A DNA stretch of 64,000 bases from a virus (IMGVR_UViG_3300032167_000006); one strand, 5' to 3'; counted from the stretch's first letter, positions 11,901 through 63,991 are shown. Translations and numbers: made by a program. Notes: generated by a model from the letters alone, not told the origin.

Positions 11901-14313
11901 CCTTGGTAAAATAAAGAATTTTTTTAAAGGAATTATATCTAAAATTAAAGGTATATTTGGCAAAGGTACTGGAAGTTATAAGTATGGCAGAGGCGGTTAT
12001 TCTAAACAAATAGATCCTTCCATCTCAAATGTAAGATTTAATAGTTCTGCAGATTCAGATTATCAAACTATTGGTGATTCTGGATGTGGTCCAGCTGCCG
12101 CTGTAAATGTGATGGAATCTATGTATGGTAGAGGAAATCCTGTTACTTCTGCTGCTAAATTTGCTCTTAGAGGTGGATACAAAGAAATTAATGGCGGTAC
12201 TGAACCTGGATTCTTTGGTGATTATTTTGCTGCTAATGGATATAATTCTCATACTTCATATAATAAGAATCAAATTGAGAGAAACATTAGAAAAGGAATG
12301 CCTACTGTTATTATGGGTAGAGATCCTGGTGGAGTTTCTTCATCATCTCCATTCGGAAGCAATCCTCATTATGTAACTGTAACTGGTGTTGATAACAAAG
12401 GATATGCTATTGTGCAAGATCCAGAATCTAAGTATGATAATCAACGTTATCCTTTAAAAAATCTTATGAATAAGACTTCTCTTGGAGTATCAGCATATGG
12501 ACGTAGTGCATGGGGTAGAGCAACTGATAATCTTTTTAATGATACAACAGACAAAGTTTGGTGGTATCTTAAAAATGAAATGGGATTAAGTGATGCAGGT
12601 GCTGCAGCCGTATTAGGTAATTTTAATCAGGAATCTAATGTTAATCCAATATTACTAGAATCTGGTAAATATAAAAATAATAATAAATATACCAATGAAT
12701 CATATACTGCATTAGTTGATGATGGTTCAATTACTAGAAATCAGTTTATTAATGTACCAAGTTATAGAAATAAGGTAGGATATGGACTTGCTCAATGGAC
12801 TTATTATACTAGAAGACAGGGATTATACGATCATGCTGTAGGCACAAATAAAGCATCTATTGGCGATCTTACATCTCAGCTTCAATATTTTAATAAAGAA
12901 ATAAGCGGTTATCCAAAATTATTAGAATCATTAAAAACTGATGGGGACGTAGGCGCTTTAACAGAATCAATTTCTAATGAGTATCTTAAACCAGGCACAC
13001 CAATGCTTGAAAATCGTAAGAGATTTGCAAATCAGTATTACGATAAGTATATGTGGTCAGAAGGAACAGCTATTGATAGTAATACATCATCTACTTCTAC
13101 AACAAGCACTGATAAAAAATCCGATACGGCATCTAATGGCGAAGAAACCAGTTCAAATAGTATATTTGATTATCTTTCAAATGAACTTTCTGCATTAGGA
13201 CCTATTAAAAATGCTAATGCTCTTAGTGAAGCTATAAATGGGTTATCAGATCTAACCAATTTTATTAAAGGATTTAATATGACTGGCACTAATATCACAG
13301 ACTCTAATAGCACAACAACTGATACTAGTGGTAATACTACTTCAACTACTGGATATTCCAAGTATGTAGAAAATATCACTAAATATGCTAAAGAAGAGTT
13401 AGATCTTGGTGTACAGGAAGATCCTATGGGTACTAATAAAATTAAATATAATGATTGGTACTATGGTGGAGCAGATAAATATGGTGATGAAGCTGCGTGG
13501 TGTGGTGCATTTGTATCATGGATTGCAAATAAAGCCGGCGTTCCAACTAGTATTATACCAAAATATATTAATTGTAATGATGGATTAAATAAGTTAAAAA
13601 CTAATGGAGCTACAATTATAACTGATCCGAAGAAGTCTCAGCCTGGAGATATTTTCTTTATAGACTATGCCGATGAAAATGGTAAAAGAAATGGAACTCC
13701 TAATCACACTGGTATTGTATATAAAAACAATTCCGATGGTACTCCTGTAACTATTGAAGGTAACTACGATAATAAAGTTGCATTAGTATCTCGTAGTTCA
13801 AACACTACAGATTATGCTGGTATTACATTAGCTCGTCCTAAATATGGTCAAGGTGGCGGTTCTAAACCTTTATCTAAGTATGGTCAATTTAAGGATTCTA
13901 TGTATGGAACTGGTTCTAATTGTGCTGGTGTTAAATGCATAAGTTCTAATGGTTATAATAACCTTAGAAGCAAGCCTGCTGGTAATCCCGCATATACTAA
14001 TTCAGGCACAGGTACTATTGTATATGGAATGGGTAATAACCATGATTATAGTAATTTAATTAATGCTATAATAAATATTTTAATGACTATAGCTGACAAT
14101 ACAGATAAGCTTAATACAATTGTGACAATATTGAATACTAAGCTCAATCTCAATATTAATGCTAATGATGTAAGTAACGCCACATCAAATAAACAATCAT
14201 TAAAATCTAAACTTGCTAATGCTTTAAATGGTATTAATCAAGCACAGCATAGTACCGAAGATAATTCTATTAGTTCAATTATCACTGCAATGAATGCTAT
14301 TGCATCTGAATAA
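2953..14313 (+). CDS. Tail tape measure protein with C-terminal C39-like peptidase, phage tail lysozyme (lysozyme2-type) and CHAP domains (3786 aa)
   Basis: Very long helical K/A/G-rich protein with Gly-rich hydrophobic segments. C39-like motif GDSGCGPAA...PHYVTVTG...VQDP (~12000-12490). Tail lysozyme GAAAVLGNFNQES...GYGLAQWT (~12540-13060). CHAP AAWCGAFVSW...PGDIF...NHTGIV...TIEGN (~13370-13840). Confidence 0.85.
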   Translation: MAVNYLKNVMKSVAYAASDTFDNLTPALKEFKETNRDFTTATYATLKNPKAFVKRQVKAVQESKLYQAIEYGARNIVEDLRTGNFYNREREERDEAKLGGLDADSWDDLSEFGISDNWEKDVNSSNEGITAGDKAVVKSIEKSNQAVANTTVNAIIATSDREVATSKANAGMAYIQNERLFGGLHKDMTILGNTMHQMYNLQAASLQNIDKNLSDYFTQESKLNVERNKILAEMLELQRNMYKSADEKTKANQKPSTKLRWGDINTNGIIDINKYFEVVKKNINNELAAHMPAGFGGDDGNMLAAMMTSPLKFAVQYVVDGIIPATVKQASTELNNTISGVFGTILNRLNNAKGKNGIAGFLAKFLGVNLGVNANIDTSKYEKGPVPFDGLTRKAIIDVIPAHLRRIEAAITGRPEEVFDYQNGKWVTMDSIKKQYKNIKTNAEKSSTADIIDEMSSGIKSERASIGKADGSRGEKDFDKAIEEFRQYLYLVGGDFNPRASASKNGINASNFPMLNKYYDRIVSVFKNTKISTRMQIANRVNDARESANRIYRGAETDPTNIYQTYFSSPTADTHGKWKDDGKTFEAYNLLNKEDKRGNSVYDYLYNINRALITIGSNGGGFGTASGVKNSSISAELFKDFEPKNNLNKKSNDEWKQRQAADAKAMESAKKLIEKGIAVDGLLYEQDPERYLEIVGNLYEAQFTDRQIIELQNISSESALSRFMNKKVYKINPKTAKELEEATKKAEKESEKGTLETEKNKSFLKKVSEKIVGEKSILGGIASASAESFTNILTTANRAIYDMMFKYEMDADGDGNKKHYNGFVEALVGKATDSFKAIGERFKKDIIDPFKEKFGIGDDFKDRFKNSLTDKGAKLWKTFKDSNKSVYGPILDQMKVELGMKQGETKAQQHRANNRKSINSKIYKVNNAENIYDNEFYEILKDYGLNPIDFADNPAKAKEAILPILYADLLKNTNGLRETNRDKNTIDNAFKGMASNPEEMKKFADSIGFSIKGKTTDEQIDSLKRRFTKIIDNGEGERRKRESVLGIKGEEGISARQKFAEELEFTGSIEEKQKQLVALAKYYGVPIKDISKYDNDDALNKSYIRIIEKNNARGTMGSPLAPGSVSYVNNHEFALTPSGMHRLPTGKVRFSEPTHIINSEQSHALGLISGPKRTNAQGYALEKAAARANGDTIASHADGTNMKVGKDGNMDAKEILSEAKKFIPEAASGGLIGGILSMVLGLAGGPLVGAALGAGGSILASSDTLKEKLFGKAGKDGKREGGIVSKTIMDKFHKYFPDMTKYGLAGLIPGLLTPLGPIGGIMAGAAFGYLKNNEKFTNKYFGEEGAFHIKSKDKKIIEQLMPGAAKGAAAGAIATLLLPTPFGFLGNAVIGAGLGMMASTNDFKDLILGKEVDGERMGGIVGAFKDAFKPFADSMKEAGSKLKDSFEANIIDPLGKLIKPAIHALPIALGSLPRLLSKAFDKFFGTRIGRTIETRVKALFSKPAKALGWVGKKAAGLGSGIMSLIGAPIRGAGDRLKAYNVRHGNLMDEDARDIVGWMDTQQEKKKLGKRTPLFKNRYKVSSTLRAVAGIGEEGGMDIETAESLMRNLERMNDTEATAQTRFNKEKKSINNLLTSYEYREGKKISDKAVKNILKAANKKDYDEISKILQKEGLSKEEFNTFMEKGGLKSAVSNVADAQFRLKNIKNITDKDAGKAAEEQLRALGIDPKDLKLNDKRSRAEAAQLIKNQLQLVNPDKVLDYETKLETENNENISTITEKVGSIDEAFKQMLDILRGKDDKVKTNQEKIESKLNKGINAADEKYTETQQKAEEKIAEVLGKGEVEQLSKEAKDNLTRTTKKRKRIKSYTKFGVNAANATADDFKNARKATFNLFKRIPQYVVRRITPEAHKVLSKYTEAKANRVSKALGSKYIKHMIKYGNYNIDPETLEVLSDTAYTRDLNTIGPVLVRAYESGYVEVYKRYPSIKAIATMRDKDIYEITKIIGHKKPIEDNIKTATINTVNAVKNSPKAVKDYTAKTVHNVSDKVRGYIDNMKANSGVEIVDADFVDDQETPSNAWGTVLATIGKTALKGVGAAAKGAVKLAGKGIKAVGKGIGSGVKSLFAGKDEMAAATSGGFLGNLFNKLKNHKSDDGGNLNETDRAGDGKDVVHVGGGDFIQVERGTDGSVQPDTQDSNTKTVLNKLSLKEKMNEKFQAAQMKVNELIHNTFDTSKEKGSKGGKLSWISLLLGGTILAKSGILKTLFNNIIKPVWTNHIQPWLKNTAVPWFTDFWTNKAVPALEKTAGYLIGELIKKLPDAIIQSFTALPRIIGGIFDAFTGNKTNSGGSNTIDANSISESNGGGNVKTGMTDENGNVLTTNDIANNNFGKIYNADGVEGTVNEDGTVTFKDTSFKGSSYVKTTANAAAHGYAKAMARGKTAKLTTTALNASKKLSKRKGLVTKAAGVTGQAIYKPTTMSESAGAATRSFLDKKVDDVALKILVDAENKGIKGKALDELTEQVLTKGDGSKTSKFVQKISGANENGLINKVKRGIEGAKSKVKSVADKAKNIFSKGAKESVEETVEKTVAKGAAQTAEAIVSTATKTGAKEATDQAGKAVTKAAAKVADGAVDAATKNKGLLAKLAARMKDAIAKLWDNSKVQKVLLKLAKALGKTKPAQFVKGLKESVEKIFKEALEKGIKKAGASVVKNVLGKVLWWVMLIADFLSGMDKAESILGVTETTIIEEVIAGLINALCNLLIVPAIFPGVPWIAKFLFKLFGQDLEERQKKAEEEAKKYNEENGTTLTTEEYLEQQYSVQGKAKKGIKDFWKKITGKSKNKKKNSDTSPPKSVVASNASGTLNISSAGDGIISVISDNLNNTYDTISDSTATMKDDKNLERVLQKSAEGKISILSKEYWEKGINNKDTSLSGTLKKSYGMLTKLTNFPILMLQNILSGMTDSIVEIGDTLSGDNSFSNNKSNNKSNNKSFLGKIKNFFKGIISKIKGIFGKGTGSYKYGRGGYSKQIDPSISNVRFNSSADSDYQTIGDSGCGPAAAVNVMESMYGRGNPVTSAAKFALRGGYKEINGGTEPGFFGDYFAANGYNSHTSYNKNQIERNIRKGMPTVIMGRDPGGVSSSSPFGSNPHYVTVTGVDNKGYAIVQDPESKYDNQRYPLKNLMNKTSLGVSAYGRSAWGRATDNLFNDTTDKVWWYLKNEMGLSDAGAAAVLGNFNQESNVNPILLESGKYKNNNKYTNESYTALVDDGSITRNQFINVPSYRNKVGYGLAQWTYYTRRQGLYDHAVGTNKASIGDLTSQLQYFNKEISGYPKLLESLKTDGDVGALTESISNEYLKPGTPMLENRKRFANQYYDKYMWSEGTAIDSNTSSTSTTSTDKKSDTASNGEETSSNSIFDYLSNELSALGPIKNANALSEAINGLSDLTNFIKGFNMTGTNITDSNSTTTDTSGNTTSTTGYSKYVENITKYAKEELDLGVQEDPMGTNKIKYNDWYYGGADKYGDEAAWCGAFVSWIANKAGVPTSIIPKYINCNDGLNKLKTNGATIITDPKKSQPGDIFFIDYADENGKRNGTPNHTGIVYKNNSDGTPVTIEGNYDNKVALVSRSSNTTDYAGITLARPKYGQGGGSKPLSKYGQFKDSMYGTGSNCAGVKCISSNGYNNLRSKPAGNPAYTNSGTGTIVYGMGNNHDYSNLINAIINILMTIADNTDKLNTIVTILNTKLNLNINANDVSNATSNKQSLKSKLANALNGINQAQHSTEDNSISSIITAMNAIASE

Positions 14314-44480: not shown

Positions 44481-45353
44481 TTATTTACCTGTGGAACCCA
44501 TTCCTCCATGGCGGTCTTCTTTTTCAGTATCAGAATCATTTTCTGCTAAAAAGAATTGTCTTAAAATGCCTTGAGCGAATTTATCTCCAGGATTTATTAT
44601 AACTTTCTTTTCATCTCTAGGATCACATGAAAGTTTAATCTTAATATGACCTTCATTATCTGCTTCAAAATAGTCATTATCGATAATGCCTACAGTATTA
44701 TCTAAATGAACTCTATACTTAAAGCCCATGCTAGATCTCGGATAAACACTTAAATCATAACCGTCTTGTAAGAATACACATCTAATTCCGGTAGGGATTA
44801 GATAACTCTTTTTTCTTTTGAGTTCAATAGGTCTGAATCCTGTATAAACGAAATCATAACCAGAACTTCTTTTAGTAGATCTTTCAGGTAATTTTATAGT
44901 ATCATATGCTACCTGAATTTCGCTATCATCATTACCTAAACCTGCATCGATATATGATTGCTTAAATTCTTCAAAAGATACTTTTTCAAATCTAGCAACA
45001 ACTTTAATATTAGATTTTGTATTTTTAATTTCTAATGCCTCTGGTTCTCCATCTAAAACCATATCTATGATTTCTTCATGAGTCATACCATTTTTAATAT
45101 AATGATGCACGAAATTATGTCCTTTATTAAGAACTCTACAGAGGTCTGCATCATTTTTCCATGTTATAGCACGATACGTATGACCATTCTGATTAGTATC
45201 CCCGTCAAGAACTTTATCTATGATTTCATCATGAGTCATACCTTTCTTAGTATGGTATGCTACATAACTATATCCCTTACCTAATTTTTTAGATAAGTCT
45301 GTATCTGACTCCCAGCTTATTCCTCTATAACTGTGTTTGCTTTTATTTAACAT
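44481..45353 (-). CDS. dut: Trimeric dUTPase with two N-terminal YRGITW beta-HTH-like repeats
   Basis: All five motifs: SSGYDF, PRSSMG, VGIIDNDY, GDKFAQGI, RHGGMGSTG; residues ~7-101 are two copies of the repeat found in the upstream helicases. Confidence 0.9.
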   Translation of the reverse strand: MLNKSKHSYRGISWESDTDLSKKLGKGYSYVAYHTKKGMTHDEIIDKVLDGDTNQNGHTYRAITWKNDADLCRVLNKGHNFVHHYIKNGMTHEEIIDMVLDGEPEALEIKNTKSNIKVVARFEKVSFEEFKQSYIDAGLGNDDSEIQVAYDTIKLPERSTKRSSGYDFVYTGFRPIELKRKKSYLIPTGIRCVFLQDGYDLSVYPRSSMGFKYRVHLDNTVGIIDNDYFEADNEGHIKIKLSCDPRDEKKVIINPGDKFAQGILRQFFLAENDSDTEKEDRHGGMGSTGK

Positions 45354-45358
45354 TATTT

Positions 45359-48148
45359 TTATTTCTCCTTCTTTATTTTATCTTCGTCTAATACTTGATC
45401 TATAATTTGTTCATATGATTTATTTGTTCTTTTTCTATGTTCGTTTACATAGCTATTTCGTTTGCCAAGTTTTATAGATAATTCTTTATCAGATTCCCAA
45501 GTAATACCACGGTATTCATTAGGTTTATAATCTAATACTTGATCTATAATTTGTTCATATGATAGACCTTTAGATTTATATAAACCAACATAACTAGCAC
45601 CCTTACCAAGTTTTATAGATAAATCTTTATCATTTTTCCACGTAATGTTTCTATATGAATATTCTTTTTTAGGTTTACCATCTAATACTTGATCTATAAT
45701 TTCCTCATATGATAAGCCTTTAGATTTATATACGCACACATGTCCTTTACCCTTGCCAAGTTTTATAGATAATTCTTTATCAGATTCCCATATAATACCA
45801 CGGTATTCATTAGGTTTATAATCTAATACTTGATCTATAATTTGTTCATATGATAGACCTTTCCTTCTACGTGACATAGATACATAACCATTATTTCTAT
45901 TAAGTTTTCTAGACAAATCAGAATCACTTATCCATATAATACCTCTATATGAATATTCATTAGGTTTATTATCTAAAACCATATCTATAATTTCTTCATA
46001 TGATAAACCTTTATGTATATATCTACTAACGTAAGCTTCATTCTTACCAAGTTTTCTAGATAAATCTTGACCGCTATCCCAAGTAATACCACGGTATTCA
46101 TTAGGTTTATAATCTAATACTTGATCTATAATTTGTTCATATGATAGACCTTTAGATTTATATAAACCAACATAACTAGCACCCTTACCAAGTTTTATAG
46201 ATAAATCAGCATTATTTATCCATATAATACCCCTATATGAATACTCTTTTTTAGGTTTAGGATCTAATACTTTATCTATGATTTCTTCATATGATAGACC
46301 TTTCTTTATATAAGAAGTAACATAATTATCTACTTTACAAAGTTTTTTAGATAATTCTACATTAGTTTTCCATGTAATACCTCTATAAGAATATTCTTTT
46401 TTAGGTTCAGGATCTAAAACCATGTCTATAATTTCTTCATGGCTCATACCCTTTTTAGCATAAAAATATACATATCCTGAATTTTTACCAAGTTTTCTAG
46501 ATAAATCTATATTATTTTCCCATATAATACCACGGTATTCATTAGGTTTATAATCTAATACTTGATCTATAATTTGTTCATATGATAGACCTTTAGATTT
46601 ATATACACATACATAGGTTTTACCCTTACCAAGTTTTATAGATAATTCAGTATCATTCTCCCATGTAATACCACGGTATTCATTAGGTTTATAATCTAAT
46701 ACTTGATCTATAATTTGTTCATATGATAGACCTTTACGTTTAAGTATATTAACATAACTATCATGTTTATTAAGTTTTCTAGATAATTCTATATTTGTTT
46801 CCCATATAATACCACGGTATTCGTTATATGGTTTATAATCTAATATATGATCTATAATTTCCTCATATGATAAGCCTTTACGTTTAAGTATACTAACATA
46901 TTGATTATATTTATTAAGTTTTCTAGACAAATCTGCATCGCTTGCCCATGTAATACCTCTATATGAATACTCACCTCTATATAACTTTTCTAATAATCTA
47001 GTGAAATTAATTAATTCATAAGAACTTGAATCCATTAATATACATCTATTAAATTTTTCAACGTACTTATATCCATATTTAAGTTTATCACCGTAGTAAT
47101 CATCATCAAAAGTTATAGTATTTTGTATATGAGGAGGTGCTATATTTCTATATGATTTATATACATCAACGAATACAGGGCTAACGTCTTTATTCATGAT
47201 ACCAAGCCTACCAAGCATCTGCAGGAATAAGTTATATGAATGCACGTTTCTATATGATATAACACCAGATACTGTTTCAGGATGAATTCCTTCAAGCACC
47301 ATACCAACAGATGCTAATATAGCTTTACCTTTATATGCTTCGAATGCACTAAGTTTGGTTGCTACATTATCCGCCATACTATGTATGACAAATACTTTAT
47401 ATTCGGGAAAATGCTTTTTAAAATATTCTATATTTTCTTCCAGCACTTTAATTTTTGGAAAATACAGTAGCCAATGATTTACATGCGAATATTTTTTCAT
47501 TATCTCACTGATAGCGGTTTTAGTTGTATCCACATTATATCTTTTAGCTATTTTTATTTCTTCAAGCATTTCTTTATATTTTTCATTATTTTTTGCAATA
47601 TCATCTATACAAATAGAATAAGTGATAGGTTGAAGCAGTCCTTCATCAATAGCATCAAGCATATCCTTACCAAATATGCTAACATCGAAAAACTCACTGC
47701 CGGCCATTTTATCATTACAAAATGGTGTAGCAGTAGTACCAAAAACATACGCATCTTTATTAATCTTAACTATATGATTCATAACAGATACTACATTGGC
47801 ACCTTGAACTTTTGAAAATAGATGATGCGCTTCATCCACAAGATATATATCATATTTGAGATGACGCTCTTTTACATGATTGAAATCTGCATAGCAACAC
47901 ATATCTATATACAGATTAATATTTTTAAACTCTTCTTTAATTTTTAGACCATTCCAAATATGCTGTTTGGAAGTAATATACAATACCCTTTTATCTCTAA
48001 AGTATTTATTTACTAAATACATAAAGATGAATGTTTTTCCTAATCCACATGCTTGTGAAAAGAAAATCTTTCTAGCTCCTTCAGCCATAGCACATTCGAT
48101 GTTATCCATCATAATTTGATTGTGCGGAAATAATTTAATTTCTTTCAT
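45359..48148 (-). CDS. SF2 (ResIII-like DExH) helicase/ATPase with 11 C-terminal YRGITW repeats (929 aa)
   Basis: ACGLGKT (I), LVDEAHH (II), GTTATP (III), SVGMVLEGIH (V), QMLGR (VI); repeats counted from translation. Confidence 0.85.
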   Translation of the reverse strand: MKEIKLFPHNQIMMDNIECAMAEGARKIFFSQACGLGKTFIFMYLVNKYFRDKRVLYITSKQHIWNGLKIKEEFKNINLYIDMCCYADFNHVKERHLKYDIYLVDEAHHLFSKVQGANVVSVMNHIVKINKDAYVFGTTATPFCNDKMAGSEFFDVSIFGKDMLDAIDEGLLQPITYSICIDDIAKNNEKYKEMLEEIKIAKRYNVDTTKTAISEIMKKYSHVNHWLLYFPKIKVLEENIEYFKKHFPEYKVFVIHSMADNVATKLSAFEAYKGKAILASVGMVLEGIHPETVSGVISYRNVHSYNLFLQMLGRLGIMNKDVSPVFVDVYKSYRNIAPPHIQNTITFDDDYYGDKLKYGYKYVEKFNRCILMDSSSYELINFTRLLEKLYRGEYSYRGITWASDADLSRKLNKYNQYVSILKRKGLSYEEIIDHILDYKPYNEYRGIIWETNIELSRKLNKHDSYVNILKRKGLSYEQIIDQVLDYKPNEYRGITWENDTELSIKLGKGKTYVCVYKSKGLSYEQIIDQVLDYKPNEYRGIIWENNIDLSRKLGKNSGYVYFYAKKGMSHEEIIDMVLDPEPKKEYSYRGITWKTNVELSKKLCKVDNYVTSYIKKGLSYEEIIDKVLDPKPKKEYSYRGIIWINNADLSIKLGKGASYVGLYKSKGLSYEQIIDQVLDYKPNEYRGITWDSGQDLSRKLGKNEAYVSRYIHKGLSYEEIIDMVLDNKPNEYSYRGIIWISDSDLSRKLNRNNGYVSMSRRRKGLSYEQIIDQVLDYKPNEYRGIIWESDKELSIKLGKGKGHVCVYKSKGLSYEEIIDQVLDGKPKKEYSYRNITWKNDKDLSIKLGKGASYVGLYKSKGLSYEQIIDQVLDYKPNEYRGITWESDKELSIKLGKRNSYVNEHRKRTNKSYEQIIDQVLDEDKIKKEK
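45380..46972 (-). repeat. Coding tandem repeat array, 11 x ~141-153 bp
   Basis: Unit YRGI[TI]W-x4-LS[RI]KLGK-x3-YV-x5-KGLSYE[EQ]IID.VLD; 45495-45625 and 46077-46207 are identical over 131 bp. Confidence 0.95.
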
Positions 48149-48218
48149 AGTAATTGATTACACATTTTAATTAAAATACATTTAATATTTTTCTTATGTG
48201 TTTACCTTTCTTAGTTTT

Positions 48219-48266
48219 TAGATAGTAGGGTAATAACCCTACTATCTATTTTTATAATATATGATT
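48219..48266 (-). promoter_or_regulatory. Early-type promoter motif (48254-48266) plus 13-bp leader hairpin (48219-48248)
   Basis: Minus strand AATCATATATTAT then TAGATAGTAGGGT-N4-ACCCTACTATCTA; duplicated at 50411-50463. Confidence 0.55.
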
Positions 48267-48269
48267 ATA

Positions 48270-50330
48270 TTATTTATCTTTTTCATCTTTTTTATCTAAA
48301 ACTTTATCTATTATTTCTTCGTATGATAGACCTTTAGATTTATAATGACATACATAATTTTCACTCTTACCAAGTTTTCTAGATAGATCTTGATCACTTA
48401 TCCAAATAATTCCTCGATATGAATTATTATCTGGTTTACAATCTAAAACTTTATCTATTATTTCTTCGTATGATAGACCTTTATGTCTTTGTATGACAAC
48501 ATACCTATCACATTTACCAAGTTTTCTAGATAAATTATTATCAGTACTCCAAGTGACGCCTCTATAAGTTTTAAATTTATCTAATATTCGATCTATTATT
48601 TCTTCATACGATAAACCATTGCGCCTATACAAACTAACATATGTATTACTCATACCAAGTTTTCTTGATAATTCAGCGTTAGTCATCCAAGTAATGCCTC
48701 TATACGAATGACTACTTGGTTTTAGATCTAATACTTGATCTATGATTTCTTCATAAGTCATACCTCTACGTTTACAATTATTTACATAAAAATCATTTTT
48801 ACTAAGTTTTATAGATAATTCTTTATCAGTATTCCAAGTAATACCACGGTATTCATTGGATTTATAATCTAACACTTTATCTATAATTTGCTCAATAGTT
48901 AATCCCATAGCTTTAAATTTACATAAATAATTACAACTTTTACCAAGTTTTTCGCACAACTCAGCTTCGGTTCTCCATGTAAATCCCCTATAGGTTTTAA
49001 CATCTTGCTTATAATCTAGAACTTGATCTATTATTTCTTCGTATGATAGACCTTTATGTTTATAGTAACACACATAACCGATATGTTTACCAAGTTTTCT
49101 AGATAAATCTTCATCACATGTCCAAACAATACTACGATATACATGCTGAGGTTGTTTATATATATTTTCTAATATATCAGAAAATTTAATTAATTCATAA
49201 GTACTAGTATGAAGTAATACACATTTTCTTATTCTTTCAGAAATTTCACATTCTGAATTTTTAGATTTATCAATATGAAATTCTTCATAACCTGTCATAG
49301 TATTTCCTATTTGTGGAGGCTTTATATTGTCATAAGATTTATAGATATCTATAAATACAGGACTGATATCTCTATTCATAATGCCAAGTCTACCAATCAT
49401 TTGCAGAAATAAATTGTATGAATAAGTATTTCTATATGATAAAATACCTCCAATTGTTCTTGGATGTACCCCCTCTAGTATCATAGAAACAGATGCTAGT
49501 ATTGCTTTGCCTTCATAAGATTCAAATTCATCCAGAACATTTTCCATATCATCTACTTTACTGTGAAGAATAAAGATTTTGTACTCTGGAAAATATTTAT
49601 TAAAATATAGTATATCATCTTCTAATTCCTGAATTCTTGGAAAATATAACAACCAATGATTTATATGTGAAAATTCATTCATTACACTACGAATAGTTGT
49701 TTTGGTTGTATCCACATTATATTTCTTTGCTATATTTTTCATTTCCTTCATATAGTGACGCACTTCTCTATTTTTAACTACGTCATCTATAGCAATAGCA
49801 TAGTTAATAGGCTGAAGTAACTTTTCTTCTATAGCTTCCAAGATATTCTTACCTACTATAGATACATCAAAAAATGCATCGCCCACCATTTTTCCTTCAA
49901 AATATGGTGTAGCAGTCATACCAAAAATATATGCATTTTTATTCTTTTTAATTGTATGGTTTGTAATAGATACAATATTTTTTCCTTGAACATCGGAGAA
50001 TAAATGATGCGCTTCATCTATAAAATATACATCATAATCATAATGATGCGCTTTTATTTCATTAAAATCAGCGTAGCAACATACGTCTACGCAATGCTTA
50101 ATATTTGAGAATTCTTTATACATATTCATATTTTTCCAAATATGATATGTTGGGCAGATATACAACACTCTTTTATTTTTGAAATGCTTATTGATTAAAT
50201 ACATGAAAACAAAAGATTTACCCAAGCCAGTTGCTTCAGTAAAAAAGATTTTTCTCATGCCTTCATTCATTGCTTTTTCGATTTCGTTAACTATAATTTG
50301 ATTGTGCTCAAATAATTTAATTTCTTTCAT
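48270..50330 (-). CDS. SF2 (ResIII-like DExH) helicase/ATPase with 6 C-terminal YRGITW repeats (686 aa)
   Basis: ATGLGKS, FIDEAHH, GMTATP, SVSMILEGVH, QMIGR; six repeats at ~48290-49148. Confidence 0.85.
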   Translation of the reverse strand: MKEIKLFEHNQIIVNEIEKAMNEGMRKIFFTEATGLGKSFVFMYLINKHFKNKRVLYICPTYHIWKNMNMYKEFSNIKHCVDVCCYADFNEIKAHHYDYDVYFIDEAHHLFSDVQGKNIVSITNHTIKKNKNAYIFGMTATPYFEGKMVGDAFFDVSIVGKNILEAIEEKLLQPINYAIAIDDVVKNREVRHYMKEMKNIAKKYNVDTTKTTIRSVMNEFSHINHWLLYFPRIQELEDDILYFNKYFPEYKIFILHSKVDDMENVLDEFESYEGKAILASVSMILEGVHPRTIGGILSYRNTYSYNLFLQMIGRLGIMNRDISPVFIDIYKSYDNIKPPQIGNTMTGYEEFHIDKSKNSECEISERIRKCVLLHTSTYELIKFSDILENIYKQPQHVYRSIVWTCDEDLSRKLGKHIGYVCYYKHKGLSYEEIIDQVLDYKQDVKTYRGFTWRTEAELCEKLGKSCNYLCKFKAMGLTIEQIIDKVLDYKSNEYRGITWNTDKELSIKLSKNDFYVNNCKRRGMTYEEIIDQVLDLKPSSHSYRGITWMTNAELSRKLGMSNTYVSLYRRNGLSYEEIIDRILDKFKTYRGVTWSTDNNLSRKLGKCDRYVVIQRHKGLSYEEIIDKVLDCKPDNNSYRGIIWISDQDLSRKLGKSENYVCHYKSKGLSYEEIIDKVLDKKDEKDK

Positions 50331-50410
50331 AGTACTTTAATTACACATTTTAACCAATATAGTTAATATTTTTCTTATGTGTTTTCCTTTCTCAAAATAT
50401 AATATAATTT

Positions 50411-50463
50411 TAGATAGTAGGGTAATATCACCCTACTATCTATTTTTATAATAATATATGATT
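50411..50463 (-). promoter_or_regulatory. Second copy of promoter motif plus 13-bp leader hairpin
   Basis: AATCATATATTAT (50451-50463) and TAGATAGTAGGGT-N6-ACCCTACTATCTA (50411-50442). Confidence 0.55.
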
Positions 50464-50466
50464 ATA

Positions 50467-52938
50467 TTATTTATCTTTTTCATCTAGAACTTTATCTATT
50501 ATTTCTTCGTATGACATACCTTTAGATTTATACATGCCCACATAATGATTCGCTTTACCAAGTTTTCTAGATAAATCAGAATCAGATTCCCATGTAATAC
50601 CACGGTATTCATTAGGTTTACTATCTAATATGCGATCTATGATTTGTTCATATGATAAGCCATTTCTATTTTTATGTGTATTAACATAATCTTTACACTT
50701 ACCAAGTTTTATAGATAGATCTTTATCATTTTCCCATGTAATACCACGGTATTCATTAGGTTTATAATCTAATACTTGATCTATAATTTGTTCATATGAT
50801 AAGCCTTTACGTTTATATTTGGATACATATGTATTTTGCTTACCAAGTTTTCTGGATAGATCATAATCAGATATCCAAGTAATACCTCTATATGAACGTT
50901 CTTCTTTAGGTTTACTATCTAATATGCGATCTATGATTTGTTCATATGATAGACCTTTAGATTTATACATACTAACATAATGATCTGCTTTACCAAGTTT
51001 TCTAGATAAATCTCTACCACTTTCCCATATAATACCACGGTATTCGTTATATGGTTTTGACTCTAATACTCGATCGATAATTTGTTCATGTAATAAACCT
51101 TTACGTTTTTGATTATACACATACGCTATACCTTTACCAAGTTTTCTAGATAAATCAGAATCAGATTCCCATGTAATTCCTCGATATGTTTTATATTTAC
51201 CATCTAATATGCGATCTATAATTTGTTCATATGATAGACCCTTACGTTTATATAAAGTTATATAAGAATTACACTTACCAAGTTTTATAGATAGATCTTT
51301 ATCATTTTCCCATGTAATACCACGGTATTCATTAGGTTTATAATCTAATACTTGATCTATAATTTGTTCATATGATAAGCCTTTAGATTTGTATAAACTA
51401 ACATAATTTTTATGCTTACCAAGTTTTATAGATAAATCATTATCAGATTCCCATGTAATTCCTCGATATGTTTTATATTTACCATCTAATACTTGATCTA
51501 TAATTTGTTCATATGATAGACCTTTTCTTTTATGCATATTTACATAAGAATCACTCTTAAAGAGTTTTCTAGATAAATCTTTACCGTTTATCCAAGTAAT
51601 ACCTCTATATGAACGTTCTTCTTTAGGTTTACTATCTAATATGCGATCTATGATTTGTTCATATGATAGACCTTTAGATTTACGACAAAATACATATGTA
51701 TTTTTCTTACCAAGTTTTCTGGATAGATCATAATCAGATATCCAAGTAATACCACGATATGAATATTCTTGATGCGAATTATCTAATTTTTCTAATAAAT
51801 TAGAAAAATTAAGTATTTCATAAACACTTGAATGTATTAACATGCATTCTGTATTTTTGACTACTTTTTCACCATTAGCAAATTTAATTTCATGACAATC
51901 ATCAATTACAATAGGATTGTTTATCGGAGGACGTATATTTCTATATGATTTATATATATCTACAAATACAGGCTTTATATCGCGACTCATAACACCGAGC
52001 CTGCCAATCATTTGCATAAATAAATTATATGAATGCACATTTCTATATGATAAAACACCATGTACGGTTTTAGGATGAACGCCTTCGAGAATCATACCTA
52101 CAGATGCCAATATAGCTTTACCTTCATATGCTTCAAATTCATCCAAAACATTTTCACATTCTATTTCGCTATGAAGAACAAATACTTTATAATCAGGAAA
52201 ATGCTTTTTGAAGTATTCTATATTTTCTTCTAATTCTTGTATTAATGGAAAATATAATAACCAATGATTAACATATGAAAAGTCATTCATTATGTTTTCA
52301 ATGGTCATTTTTGTTGTATCTATATTATAAAGTATAGCCGCATCTTCCATTTCTTGCATTTCGGGGTTTTCTCTAACAGTTTTAACCACGTCATCTATAG
52401 CAATAGCATATGTTATAGGCTGTAATAATTTTTCCTTTACAGCTTGAAATATATCTTTGCCCATTATAGATACGTCGAAAAATGCATTTCCTACCATTTT
52501 ATTTTCATGATATGGTGTAGCTGTCATACCAAAAGCATATGCATCTTTATTATTCTCAATTAAAGTATTTATAACAGATGCTATATTACTTCCCTGAATA
52601 TCTGAAAATAAGTGATGTGCTTCGTCTATAAAATATACATCATACTCAAAATGATGTTCTTTTATATTATTAAAGGCTGCATAGCAGCACATATCAACGC
52701 AATGCTCAATATTTTTAAATTCTTCATTCGATTTTACCTGTTTCCAAATGTAATATGTAGGACAAATATACAATACTTTTTTATCTTTAAAGTATTTATT
52801 TACTAAATACATAAAAATGAATGTTTTTCCTAACGAACATGCTTCCGAAAAGAAAATTTTTCTTATACCTTCAGCCATAACGCACTCGATGTCATCCACC
52901 ATAATTTGATTGTGCGGTAACAATTTAATTTCTTTCAT
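50467..52938 (-). CDS. SF2 (ResIII-like DExH) helicase/ATPase with 9 C-terminal YRGITW repeats (823 aa)
   Basis: ACSLGKT (variant Walker A), FIDEAHH, GMTATP, SVGMILEGVH, QMIGR; nine repeats at ~50480-51768. Confidence 0.85.
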   Translation of the reverse strand: MKEIKLLPHNQIMVDDIECVMAEGIRKIFFSEACSLGKTFIFMYLVNKYFKDKKVLYICPTYYIWKQVKSNEEFKNIEHCVDMCCYAAFNNIKEHHFEYDVYFIDEAHHLFSDIQGSNIASVINTLIENNKDAYAFGMTATPYHENKMVGNAFFDVSIMGKDIFQAVKEKLLQPITYAIAIDDVVKTVRENPEMQEMEDAAILYNIDTTKMTIENIMNDFSYVNHWLLYFPLIQELEENIEYFKKHFPDYKVFVLHSEIECENVLDEFEAYEGKAILASVGMILEGVHPKTVHGVLSYRNVHSYNLFMQMIGRLGVMSRDIKPVFVDIYKSYRNIRPPINNPIVIDDCHEIKFANGEKVVKNTECMLIHSSVYEILNFSNLLEKLDNSHQEYSYRGITWISDYDLSRKLGKKNTYVFCRKSKGLSYEQIIDRILDSKPKEERSYRGITWINGKDLSRKLFKSDSYVNMHKRKGLSYEQIIDQVLDGKYKTYRGITWESDNDLSIKLGKHKNYVSLYKSKGLSYEQIIDQVLDYKPNEYRGITWENDKDLSIKLGKCNSYITLYKRKGLSYEQIIDRILDGKYKTYRGITWESDSDLSRKLGKGIAYVYNQKRKGLLHEQIIDRVLESKPYNEYRGIIWESGRDLSRKLGKADHYVSMYKSKGLSYEQIIDRILDSKPKEERSYRGITWISDYDLSRKLGKQNTYVSKYKRKGLSYEQIIDQVLDYKPNEYRGITWENDKDLSIKLGKCKDYVNTHKNRNGLSYEQIIDRILDSKPNEYRGITWESDSDLSRKLGKANHYVGMYKSKGMSYEEIIDKVLDEKDK

Positions 52939-52943
52939 GGTAC

Positions 52944-53366
52944 TTAATTACACTTTTTATCTAAAATATAATCGATAATTTCTTCGTGTGTTTTTCCTTT
53001 CTTAATATTAGCCGAAACATAATCTCGACTCATACCTAACTTTATAGATAAATCATTATTAGATTTCCATTTAATCCCTCTATAGGAATACTTTCCATCT
53101 AATGCTTCATCTATAATCTCTTCATAGGCCATACCTTTATTTAATCTGCTTAAAACAAAGTCTTTTCCTACTTTTAAATTTCTAGCGAGTTCTCTATTAC
53201 TGCCCCAGATGATATTTCTATATCTTCTATATCTAAGAGCATAATCAATAATCTCATCATATGTTTTACCCATATGCAAATGATGTGCAACATAACCAGG
53301 ATATTTACCAAGTTTTCTTGACAATTCTCTATCTGAACGCCATGTTATTCCTCTACATTCATTCAT
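52944..53366 (-). CDS. Stand-alone protein of three YRGITW repeats (140 aa)
   Basis: AAGGAG RBS; CRGITW.., YRNIIW.. and YRGIKW.. units, each ending in EIID.(A/I)L. Confidence 0.85.
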   Translation of the reverse strand: MNECRGITWRSDRELSRKLGKYPGYVAHHLHMGKTYDEIIDYALRYRRYRNIIWGSNRELARNLKVGKDFVLSRLNKGMAYEEIIDEALDGKYSYRGIKWKSNNDLSIKLGMSRDYVSANIKKGKTHEEIIDYILDKKCN

Positions 53367-53866: not shown

Positions 53867-53894
53867 AAATAGAAGGGATTTCTCCCTTCTATTT
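53867..53894 (-). terminator. Hairpin terminator
   Basis: AAATAGAAGGGA-TTTC-TCCCTTCTATTT (GAAA loop, U-tract on the minus strand). Confidence 0.75.
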
Positions 53895-54189
53895 AATATC
53901 TGGTTGTTAACCCTAAACTCTTTGCTTTTGCTGCAATAGCAGCTTTAGATCTTCTAGGAATATAGAAAGAAACCTTAGTTCCCATATTGCAATAGTATTT
54001 AATAAGAATATCTAATTCTTCTTTAGACCATCTAGTTCTATCGTATGTTATACCAAGCTTTGAAGCTTGAGCTCTACAAGCTTTAAAAGTTCTACCTGGA
54101 AGATGATTAACAATATCTTTACCTATAGTTTGATAATACTTTTTAAGTATAGCATTTTCTTCTTCAGTCCATTTTTTTCTTTCGCTCAT
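53893..54189 (-). CDS. Two-repeat Myb/SANT-like DNA-binding protein (98 aa)
   Basis: KKWTEEENAILKKYY...LPGRT..ACRAQASKLG and RWSKEELDILIKYY...IPRRS..AIAAKAKSLG; own promoter motif (54248-54260), leader hairpin (54218-54243) and terminator. Confidence 0.75.
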   Translation of the reverse strand: MSERKKWTEEENAILKKYYQTIGKDIVNHLPGRTFKACRAQASKLGITYDRTRWSKEELDILIKYYCNMGTKVSFYIPRRSKAAIAAKAKSLGLTTRY

Positions 54190-62131: not shown

Positions 62132-63991
62132 CTAAAACTCCTCATCGTCATAAAAATTACTTATATCAAATGCTTCAACCATAGGATGGTGTTTAAGATA
62201 TTTATAAACGTTATCTTTTAAAAACTCCTGTTCAATCCATTCCCAATCCGATGGATTATTTTTATTTCTAATATGTATAGTTCCTAAATAAACAGGTTTA
62301 AGATTCTTTCCTGCAGTATATACATAAGCATCAAAAGAATTATATCTTCTAGTCTCATAAGTATCTGAAGAGTTATTAATAGCATCTTCTATAGACTTAG
62401 CATACTGTTCTTCATCCCAACTATAATATTTAGGATCTTTATTCTTTGCAGCAATCTTGGGTTCTATATGATATGCTTTAAAATCATCAAATGGTACGGG
62501 GATTACTTTTTTATTATTAGTTGGTTTAAAATATTTTTCAGTAATTACTTCGGTTTCAGATATAGGCTCTTCATTTACATAATTTTCTATAACCATAGAT
62601 GCTATAGCCAAGGGCATTAATTTATCACAATAATTATGTGTAGAATTTTTAGATTCTATTTTTAAGATATCGTTATAGAAATTATCCTTATCCTGTAATT
62701 CTTTTAATCTGATTTCACCGATTTCTCTATATTCAGCAAAATCTCCTGAAGTAAATACATTGGTAGCTTCTTTTATATTTTTATTAATAGTCATATAATA
62801 CATTGTATCTGATTCTTGATATACTTTAAAACCATAATCATCATAAACTTTTTTAGCAATTTCATTATTTTTATTAACGGAAAGATATTTACAATTCATA
62901 GATTTTACTGCGTAATCAAGAATCTGTTTTGATAATCCATATCCTTTATAATTTTTGGTTACTTCTAAAGAAACAATCCATTTAGTTTTATCATCGGTAT
63001 ATTCACAAGAGCCAACCATAGCTGCTAATTCATCATTATCAAACCATATATAACCATCACAAATATATTCTTTAGTATCTTTACATCTTACATGCTTAAG
63101 AAAAGGATATTCTTTTTTATATTTATCAATAACTGTTTCTGTAATATGAACTTTTTTAAAAGACGATAAATTCTTTTTACCTTTTGGCTCATAATTTTTA
63201 TCTATGGTTGATTTGGATTCATTAATTCTAACAACTTTACCATCAAAACCTTCGATAAGAGCTTTCTTAATATCCATAAAGATTTCTAATAATTGAACAA
63301 ACTGATTATCTGTAAGGCGTAAATAATGATATTCCCCTCTATCTGTAATCAGTTTTTCTTTCTCTATAGTACGCTGTCTTGAAGACTGCATACCAACAGT
63401 ATTTTTATTATTAGGATTGCTTCCACCATCTTTAACTTCGATAATTAAGTTATATGGAATATATAAAAAGTCTGTTATATAGAAATGCTTTTCACCATTC
63501 ATTTCATATTCTATTGTCGGTCCAGGAGCCATAATATCTTTAGATGGAATCTGCATAACTCTATCCGCAAATTCTAAGAACTTCTTTTCATAAGAACCAG
63601 TATAAGTTACAACTCCGCCGTCAGTAAATTTATACTTACCAGAAATAGATCTATTAGCAAGCATCTTTTTCTGTTGCTCATCTGAAGTGAGAATATTGTA
63701 CGTTCCATGAACTCTAAGCATATTTTTCTGATATTCTTCTCTCATCTTCTGTTTACATCTTGGATCTAAACAAAGAACGTCATAACGTTTAGCATTACTA
63801 TTCCATTTTGTAGGTCTACCACATATTCTACATTTACCAGCGCCCTTAGTATTATTTACTAAATCATAAACTATTTGAGCCGATTCAAAACCATCAGGAA
63901 TAACATCTTCATGCTCATCATCTATATGATTTATAAGATCTTTTCTTATATATCTTTCATCACAATATGGGCATTTATATTTCTTAGCCAT
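62132..63991 (-). CDS. Zinc finger + TnsA/PD-(D/E)xK nuclease + GNAT acetyltransferase multidomain protein (619 aa)
   Basis: C2H2 CPYC..HIDDEH; CRIC..C...C; SYEKKFLEF...FYITDF...IIEVKD nuclease motif; WIVSLEVTKNYKGYGLSKQIL...LSVNKNNEIAKKVYDDYGF GNAT motifs A/B. Confidence 0.75.
   Translation of the reverse strand: MAKKYKCPYCDERYIRKDLINHIDDEHEDVIPDGFESAQIVYDLVNNTKGAGKCRICGRPTKWNSNAKRYDVLCLDPRCKQKMREEYQKNMLRVHGTYNILTSDEQQKKMLANRSISGKYKFTDGGVVTYTGSYEKKFLEFADRVMQIPSKDIMAPGPTIEYEMNGEKHFYITDFLYIPYNLIIEVKDGGSNPNNKNTVGMQSSRQRTIEKEKLITDRGEYHYLRLTDNQFVQLLEIFMDIKKALIEGFDGKVVRINESKSTIDKNYEPKGKKNLSSFKKVHITETVIDKYKKEYPFLKHVRCKDTKEYICDGYIWFDNDELAAMVGSCEYTDDKTKWIVSLEVTKNYKGYGLSKQILDYAVKSMNCKYLSVNKNNEIAKKVYDDYGFKVYQESDTMYYMTINKNIKEATNVFTSGDFAEYREIGEIRLKELQDKDNFYNDILKIESKNSTHNYCDKLMPLAIASMVIENYVNEEPISETEVITEKYFKPTNNKKVIPVPFDDFKAYHIEPKIAAKNKDPKYYSWDEEQYAKSIEDAINNSSDTYETRRYNSFDAYVYTAGKNLKPVYLGTIHIRNKNNPSDWEWIEQEFLKDNVYKYLKHHPMVEAFDISNFYDDEEF

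Follow-up and report, generated by a model that had tools for sequence, protein, structure and literature searches.

Why would a phage attach long strings of a small, highly variable repeat to three helicases, place two more copies on a dUTPase and keep a further gene that encodes little besides the repeat? This question is raised by a stretch of viral DNA of 64,000 nucleotides (nt) (IMGVR_UViG_3300032167_000006, hereafter the window), in which five co-oriented and closely packed open reading frames (ORFs) occupy positions 44481-53366 of the minus strand and encode 3 + 9 + 6 + 11 + 2 = 31 units. An earlier note, made from the sequence alone, had described them as arrays of helix-turn-helix (HTH)-like repeats that would steer superfamily 2 (SF2) helicases to chosen DNA targets. 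Our analysis leads us to favour, at slightly better than even chances, another reading of these proteins: flexible arrays of NUMOD1-like HTH modules would serve to tether proteins to DNA or target them to it, namely a motor, a dUTPase and proteins without a motor.

A conserved scaffold with hypervariable positions

Exactly 31 units of 45-51 amino acids (aa) were recovered from the five proteins by a regular expression and MAFFT alignment, with the same number per gene as the earlier note had counted. Columns R2, W6, L12, L16, I36, I37, D38 and L41 are invariant in the 31 units, and Y1, I4, S13, K15, Y22, V23, G30, E34 and D42 are conserved in at least 90% of them. Entropy exceeds 2.3 bits at columns 7, 10, 19-21 and 24-26, plus 41 and 45. 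This bears out the near-invariant scaffold with two variable windows that had been described by eye and adds a few further positions. The eight-residue signatures read from columns 7, 10, 19-21 and 24-26 are all distinct (31/31), and the hypervariable residues are rich in N, S, Y, K, G, E, A and H. The pattern extends to other proteins, in 466 units of which hypervariability falls on the same columns (Spearman 0.87). The repeats are far beyond chance: with a hidden Markov model (HMM) of the units, E-values for the arrays range from 1e-148 to 1e-275. Since the DNA copies of the units are 60-92% identical to one another, an assembly artefact is an unlikely source of the repeats, which are old, diverged copies.

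Predicted fold of the unit and its probable distant kinship to NUMOD1

The 3-unit protein P0005 was modelled by AlphaFold2 using a 53-row alignment of 3-unit blocks. In the model, each unit consists of a two-stranded hairpin and three helices. The predicted local distance difference test (pLDDT) is high (89.7) for a predicted template modelling score (pTM) of 0.48; therefore, the units are confidently folded and their mutual arrangement is not fixed. Judging from this 3-unit model, the array looks like beads on a string and not like a solenoid. The variable residues are predicted to lie before or on the exposed face of the second helix, where modules of this type read DNA and where the earlier note had expected them.

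The best VIA-align neighbour of the model is sCTP-23166 from Paulinella (8b6e_B; Z 3.7, root-mean-square deviation 2.3 A over 39 residues). The other rows include the DNA-binding domain of pSK1 Par (Z 3.6) and the HTHs of RacA, Xis and small terminases; a second structural look at the Protein Data Bank (PDB) added only pSK1 Par and MerR-type HTHs, at Z <=3.6. sCTP-23166 binds DNA in vitro and has a beta1-beta2-alpha1-alpha2-beta3 fold, which its authors found to match the C-terminal HTH domains of I-HmuI and I-TevI best; in its 161 paralogues, the hydrophobic core is kept and the DNA-proximal residues of alpha2 are varied (PMC10319021). This is the same pattern of conserved core and variable helix as in the units of the window. 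The docked base contacts of sCTP-23166 (Q33, N34 and K37) fall on unit columns 24 and 25 and on the moderately variable column 30, in a mapping that assumes an ungapped offset and derives from the aligned ranges (model 1-42, chain 7-48), not from a residue-level alignment. The sCTPs (sCTP-23166 is PDB 8B6E) resemble the units in forming an expanded family in which the hydrophobic core is conserved and the recognition helix close to the DNA varies. However, they are single-domain eukaryotic proteins without arrays or enzyme fusion, and their last element is a beta-strand, where the unit has a helix.

The predicted topology of the unit would fit the strands plus HTH of the C-terminal domains of I-TevI and I-HmuI, which its best neighbour, sCTP-23166, itself resembles. 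I-TevI and I-HmuI themselves do not appear in the structural neighbour lists, in which all Z scores are low; this absence is compatible with kinship. Comparison of the unit profile (A1) with that of NUMOD1-scoring repeats (A3) by hhalign gave a probability of 98.8% and E 9e-17, in a test that is partly circular because A3 was drawn from hits to A1. NUMOD1 is the top Pfam family for 7 of the 25 A3 units (best E 8.6e-4). Furthermore, a close member of the family (P0035) reaches 30.7 bits with its repeats summed, for a NUMOD1 whole-protein cut-off of 22.8. Distant proteins found by the profile (P0093, P0131, P0102 and P0150) match NUMOD1 at 28-52 bits; for P0150, the scores are 52.5 bits for NUMOD1 and 42 bits for I-TevI_DNA-bd. 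Neighbours in the ESM Atlas, by features and shape, are phage and Bacillota arrays of NUMOD1, I-HmuI_NUMOD-like and HTH_psq domains. No functional family for the repeat was found in Pfam, NCBIfam or PHROG, the Pfam rows for the arrays being sums of many tiny partial matches, and the unit profile found nothing below E 0.2 among PDB sequences. From the profiles and the model we conclude that the unit is probably a divergent NUMOD1-like HTH module with an added capping helix, outside formal Pfam membership. Its apparent kinship to the NUMOD1, I-TevI and I-HmuI modules is distant and transitive. The resemblance to NUMOD1/IENR1-type modules that the earlier note had drawn therefore stands in this distant form, through AlphaFold2, hhalign, VIA-align and the Pfam matches of relatives.

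NUMOD1/IENR1-type modules (I-TevI, I-HmuI; PF07453, PF20987, PF22083) are likewise loosely tethered, repeatable readers of about 40-50 aa, made of one or more strands plus an HTH and found in phage proteins. They also share with the arrays the principle that several modules cover a long site (PMC3943268). Unlike NUMOD1 proteins, those of the window have no nuclease partner: no homing-endonuclease catalytic domain (GIY-YIG, HNH, EDxHD) was found in the five proteins or in 20 Pfam-scanned relatives. Their units have an extra C-terminal helix, occur in 2-14 tandem copies, fail the Pfam threshold and sit on an SF2 helicase or a dUTPase, or stand alone.

Nuclease-free SF2 cores with C-terminal arrays

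The three helicase cores are 58-64% identical to one another (protein). They belong to SF2: motifs I (GKT/S), II (DEAHH), III (TATP) and VI (QxxGR) are conserved in 29 relatives, and both ResIII and Helicase_C were detected. Foldseek returned at least 500 SF2 matches for the core at E <=0.001, with RadD at the top, in keeping with a fold of two RecA lobes. The AlphaFold2 model of the P0003 core (pLDDT 79.2, pTM 0.76) is nearest to Escherichia coli RadD (E 1.9e-13, template modelling score 0.61), and its next structural neighbours are Hef, XPB/Ssl2, INO80 and HsdR. RadD (PDB 8H5Y, 7R7J, 6JDE) and the XPB/Ssl2-type SF2 ATPases are the nearest solved structures. However, identity is about 16%, and the NCBIfam RadD match is weak (23.9 bits for a cut-off of 720); the core is not an orthologue of RadD. 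RadD has a zinc finger and an SSB-binding C-terminal domain, whereas the helicases of the window have an HTH array instead. No nuclease domain was found in the helicase proteins with Pfam, PHROG or NCBIfam. No PADLOC defence-system model was matched, with weak partial rows only (typeIV_DinG, 38 bits, no single stretch over threshold). NCBIfam and PADLOC gave no informative family for either arrays or cores. These searches, together with Foldseek, agree with the earlier description of the cores as SF2 helicases devoid of a nuclease domain.

Relatives of the cores carry other C-terminal regions. In a 39%-identical helicase (L020, 8052-10211), the repeat array is replaced by other segments that look HTH/Myb-like by eye (unscored). 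A more distant core relative (P0033, 24% identity, E 3.7e-7) carries HA repeats (PF03457), as expected from the earlier mention of related helicases with such repeats. Helicases of this clade may therefore share a design in which the C-terminus binds DNA, with the NUMOD1-like array as one version of that design. The HA-domain ResIII helicases of Firmicutes and Actinobacteria follow the same plan, with N-terminal ResIII/Helicase_C and then tandem small helical repeats. Nevertheless, their repeat belongs to another sequence family, and no protein of the window matches PF03457.

One of the paralogues stands out by its motif I. P0004 has ACSLGKT (52825-52845) where the consensus is A[TC]GLGK[ST], and the Ser replaces a first Gly that is kept in at least 90% of relatives; the ATPase of P0004 may, on this sequence difference, differ from that of its two paralogues.

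Charge, selection and the putative DNA-binding role of the arrays

The helicase and stand-alone arrays are basic (isoelectric point (pI) 8.8-9.5, net charge +8 to +22), whereas the helicase cores range from acidic to neutral. Within a unit, a charge of +4.2 on the hairpin-HTH part contrasts with one of -2.6 on helix 3 and the linker together, as would be expected if the HTH faced DNA and the cap faced solvent. Purifying selection on the scaffold codons is strong, their ratio of nonsynonymous to synonymous substitution rates (dN/dS) being 0.10; therefore, all 31 units are kept folded.

We infer from these properties that the arrays bind DNA through the HTH face and that the motor acts on the DNA to which it is held. 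Each unit of about 47 aa would be an independently folded hairpin, helix, turn, helix and capping helix. Its second helix would enter the major groove, the backbone would be gripped by conserved Lys and Arg residues (R2, K15, K18 and the K/R run that follows helix 2), and the hypervariable residues before or on the exposed face of the second helix would touch bases, so that each unit would have its own weak sequence preference. With 2-14 units as flexible beads on short linkers, an array would bind duplex DNA strongly by multivalency, with a composite and probably degenerate preference. In the helicases, it would anchor a nuclease-free RadD/XPB-like SF2 ATPase, and the motor next to the anchor would translocate on, unwind or remodel DNA. 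The same arrays would keep dUTPase on the same DNA, and sites of this kind would also be taken up by the motor-less array proteins. NUMODs read DNA as loosely tethered modules, contacting sites of up to 30 bp (PMC3943268). Multivalent tethering follows this NUMOD logic of homing endonucleases, as well as that of SF2 motors anchored by helical DNA-binding domains. Such anchoring is known from ISWI and Chd1 (SANT-SLIDE) and from herpesvirus UL9, SF2 ATPases in which C-terminal DNA-binding domains set where the motor acts. These are working analogies for which no homology is claimed, with one or two modules there and arrays here.

Several results weigh against this DNA-tethering reading. The NUMOD1 (PF07453) threshold is reached by none of the five proteins and by none of the 31 single units, and the Pfam HTH thresholds are likewise not reached by the units of the window. 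No Foldseek match of the P0005 model to the PDB was obtained at E <=0.001, and the VIA-align matches are weak (Z <=3.7) and tied with UBA-type three-helix bundles. The two-unit segment on dUTPase is an exception among the arrays in not being basic (pI 6.4). Free variation of the putative reading residues at about the rate of the linkers could mean that this face binds nothing specific. Finally, no tandem or dispersed noncoding DNA repeats that could be candidate targets of the arrays were found within the 64-kb window.

Programmable address, initiator or protein-binding surface?

The earlier note went further than tethering and proposed a programmable address: each unit would read a short DNA word, the order of the units would spell a long unique target, and the three paralogues would have three sites in host, competitor or own DNA. 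The arrays would then diversify in an arms race, as the zinc fingers of PRDM9 and KRAB-ZNF proteins or transcription activator-like effectors (TALEs) do. We consider this unlikely. Several observations do fit it: the 31 signatures are all different, the three helicase arrays differ from one another, and the variability is concentrated where bases would be faced. TALE and C2H2 zinc-finger arrays (PRDM9, KRAB-ZNF) are likewise made of tandem near-identical units with few hypervariable positions, and the likeness possibly extends to changes of array length by recombination. However, the units of the window are not TALE-like repeats, which are 33-35 aa two-helix repeats forming a superhelix with two specificity residues. 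They are autonomous beta-beta-alpha-alpha-alpha domains of 45-51 aa with at least 8 variable positions, and no superhelical packing is predicted for them (pTM 0.48). The 3-unit model thereby lacks the rigid solenoid that would set the register of reading. Moreover, to single out one site in any genome takes far less DNA than 6-14 HTH modules would span. A long specific site would be of no obvious use to dUTPase, and the context of the pure arrays likewise speaks against a code. The presence of the same module on dUTPase and in motor-less arrays of 3, 10 and 14 units fits a general DNA-tethering module at least as well.

Substitution patterns bear on the same question. The hypervariable codons have a ratio of nonsynonymous to synonymous polymorphism (pN/pS) of 1.3 (bootstrap 1.05-1.62), as an arms race would predict, but the linkers, presumably free of constraint, reach 1.41, and the variable sites are near saturation. 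Positive selection there was therefore dropped as an explanation. The variable sites change at roughly the neutral pace, and they may or may not be under diversifying selection. In related phages, with cores about 60% identical to those of the window, only 0-36% of signature positions are shared with it, for scaffolds that are 50-94% identical, and no unit-by-unit orthology of signatures was found. Such full turnover would suit an arms race, but conserved signatures would be expected in orthologous arrays if fixed targets mattered. Array length varies too: the 9-unit gene has a 5-unit form, and on another contig its place is taken by a gene of 611 aa. This also goes in the direction of a programmable address; however, the 5-unit form joins within a 59-nt exact repeat and could be an assembly collapse. 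A programmable code has no positive support beyond the variability itself. It is quite unlikely that the arrays are a third programmable protein-DNA code beside zinc fingers and TALEs, in which up to 14 units would spell addresses for a motor, a dUTPase and motor-less blockers.

It is distinctly improbable that the helicases are initiators whose arrays recognise reiterated sequences at the origins, packaging or recombination sites of the phage itself, where the motor would melt DNA as UL9 does and the stand-alone arrays would regulate the same sites. An SF2 core that is free of nuclease and followed by a C-terminal region for DNA binding, the neighbours devoted to DNA metabolism (dUTPase, a DNA-methyltransferase-like phrog_799 gene and a Myb-like protein) and the small array gene that accompanies a helicase in three phages are in its favour. 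Nevertheless, no iterated noncoding DNA was found in the 64 kb, a quarter of the genome, and neither three divergent paralogues nor a rapid turnover of signatures would be expected of an essential origin reader. There is only a slim chance that the arrays do not bind DNA at all and are protein- or RNA-binding surfaces or decoys, for instance sponges for host defence or DNA-binding proteins, that vary fast to track host partners. The structural tie of the three-helix modules with UBA/CUE protein-binding domains, the fast change of exposed residues and the many stand-alone proteins of 2-4 units would fit such a role. Against it stand the basic character of the hairpin-HTH half, the consistent direction of profile and structural leads towards HTH families that bind DNA, and the fusion partners, which are DNA and nucleotide enzymes.

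Duplication history and array length

The two intergenic regions that follow the first and second helicase genes (48149-48269 and 50331-50466) each contain a terminator-like hairpin with a 13-14-bp stem (TAGATAGTAGGGT...ACCCTACTATCTA). By alignment, each also contains a decayed copy of the last ~60 nt of a 3-unit gene. Within the window, the 13-14-bp palindrome is confined to these two places, and it resembles a terminator that was duplicated. Since hairpin and 3-unit-gene fossil occur in both intergenic regions, the duplicated block was [3-unit gene + helicase]. Inside the arrays, Tandem Repeats Finder detected, on top of the 141-nt unit, longer periods of 282/291 nt (two units) and 441 nt (three units), at 45465-46957 and 50482-51761; therefore, the arrays grew by blocks of 2 and 3 units. 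In the 11-unit array, units r3 and r9, as well as r6 and r10, share 6 of 8 signature residues. The family has grown by tandem duplication of the [3-unit gene + helicase] block, by internal duplications of 1-3 units and possibly by recombination between units. Given such a tandemly duplicated gene family, the label of "new system" used by the earlier note is overstated.

Array length differs between some copies. A 631-aa protein (P0006) is a 5-unit form of the 9-unit helicase, otherwise identical to it; it lacks units 4 (part) to 8 (part), and the junction lies inside the 59-nt exact repeat between units 4 and 8. In addition, a contig of sample ERZ27248370 has a 611-aa gene in place of the 823-aa helicase gene. 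The 631-aa and 611-aa forms are either real array-length alleles or short-read assembly collapses.

Distribution of the family and novelty of the architecture

The window is phage DNA and encodes virion structural proteins and an endolysin. Proteins identical to P0003 are found on contigs of up to 259 kb, and relatives on contigs of 123-290 kb; the source is an uncultivated phage of roughly 259 kb. The L020 helicase lies on a 216-kb contig binned with a Lachnospiraceae metagenome-assembled genome, which, together with the tail lysozyme and CHAP domains encoded in the window, hints weakly at a Gram-positive gut host. GenBank phages gave no DNA match by megablast, and the sole protein match by tblastn was a 25%-identical helicase of a Chryseobacterium phage.

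An exhaustive profile search of 1.84 billion representative proteins found the repeat in 135 clusters, 90 of them below 1e-10. Counting these clusters and the helicase homologues together, 43 repeat-bearing proteins have the helicase DExHH motif, and most of the remaining ones are stand-alone proteins with 2-7 units. For instance, a 260-kb relative (L001) has a syntenic cluster that encodes pure arrays of 14, 10 and 3 units, a 7-unit helicase and a helicase-2-unit-dUTPase fusion (array and fusion coordinates listed: 3302-5356, 6286-7791, 5447-5881 and 10001-12061). In this fusion, a helicase core, two degenerate units and dUTPase form one protein, whereas they are encoded by separate genes in the window. 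In a third phage (L003), a small array gene lies alongside a 5-unit helicase.

The ingredients of these proteins are already known: SF2 core, NUMOD1-like HTH, tandem readers and helicases with C-terminal helical repeats. We could not find a description of their combination, i.e. long hypervariable NUMOD1-like arrays on nuclease-free helicases, on dUTPase and alone, in Pfam, PHROGs, NCBIfam, PADLOC, the PDB or the literature searched, and the author of the earlier note had not recognised the architecture either. The family, which is rare and absent from GenBank phages, has probably escaped notice. An HTH module of homing-endonuclease type appears here multiplied to 2-14 copies and moved to motor-less proteins as well as to a helicase motor and an enzyme of the nucleotide pool. 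Provided that they do bind DNA, the arrays would reveal a nuclease-free means by which large phages position enzymes on it, and they would provide a compact, naturally diversified HTH scaffold with measurable specificity rules. Should the specificities of the units prove separable, DNA targeting would gain a new scaffold open to engineering.

Gene layout and neighbouring genes

The features of the locus are collected in Table 1.

Table 1. Coordinates of the repeat-bearing genes, their domains and the intergenic regions (positions in the window)
Feature	Position	Strand	Basis
P0005, 3-unit stand-alone protein, 140 aa	52944..53366	-	translation; 3 HMM domains; AlphaFold2 pLDDT 89.7; pI 9.5
P0004, helicase paralogue 1, 823 aa, 9 units	50467-52938	-	translation
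P0004 SF2 core, aa 1-393	51760..52938	-	ResIII E 2.2e-14 and Helicase_C; motifs GKT, DEAHH, TATP, QxxGR
P0004 C-terminal 9-unit array	50467..51759	-	regular expression/MAFFT and HMM; net charge +22, pI 9.4
Intergenic: terminator-like hairpin (50411-50442) and fossil of 3-unit gene 3' end	50331..50466	-	aligns to 3' end of P0005 gene and to the other intergenic region
P0003, helicase paralogue 2, 686 aa, 6 units	48270-50330	-	translation
P0003 SF2 core, aa 1-397	49140..50330	-	ResIII E 7.8e-15; AlphaFold2 pLDDT 79.2, pTM 0.76; nearest structure RadD
P0003 C-terminal 6-unit array	48270..49139	-	regular expression/MAFFT and HMM; pI 8.8
Intergenic: second copy of hairpin (48219-48248) and fossil	48149..48269	-	alignment
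P0002, helicase paralogue 3, 929 aa, 11 units	45359-48148	-	translation
P0002 SF2 core, aa 1-395	46964..48148	-	ResIII E 7.5e-13
P0002 C-terminal 11-unit array	45359..46963	-	regular expression/MAFFT and HMM; periods 291 and 441 nt; pI 9.1
P0001, 2 units + dUTPase, 290 aa	44481-45353	-	translation; PF00692
P0001 N-terminal two units, aa 9-105	45039..45329	-	HMM E 1.7e-49, 2 domains
P0001 dUTPase domain, aa 138-290	44484..44942	-	PF00692 E 1.8e-10; phrog_135 E 1.5e-29; TIGR00576 E 3.7e-22

P0001 carries the domain of trimeric dUTPases by its PF00692 score (41.1 bits for a cut-off of 22) and by its match to phrog_135; its match to TIGR00576 falls under the curated cut-off of that model. The fusion found in the relative suggested that the 11-unit helicase and the dUTPase gene might be fused by a frameshift in the window. 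This was rejected because the two are separated by a stop codon and a 5-nt spacer and lie in different frames, and an AAGGAG ribosome-binding site stands just before the ATG.

Two genes upstream of the cluster, a 98-aa Myb-like DNA-binding protein (PF00249, E 2.7e-11), a further small DNA binder of HTH type in this block, is encoded at 53893-54189 (minus strand). Its gene adjoins the DNA-methyltransferase-like one, which matches phrog_799 and has a Pfam row under the cut-off. Further away, a 619-aa protein (62132-63991, minus strand) is an unusual fusion, in which a GNAT acetyltransferase domain is joined to a phage endonuclease family (phrog_15137, E 6.7e-40). On the plus strand, a 3786-aa ORF (2953-14313) has peptidase C39-like, phage tail lysozyme and CHAP domains, all close to its C-terminus (aa 3041-3604). 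The product is probably a giant protein of tail or tape-measure type that carries cell-wall hydrolases.

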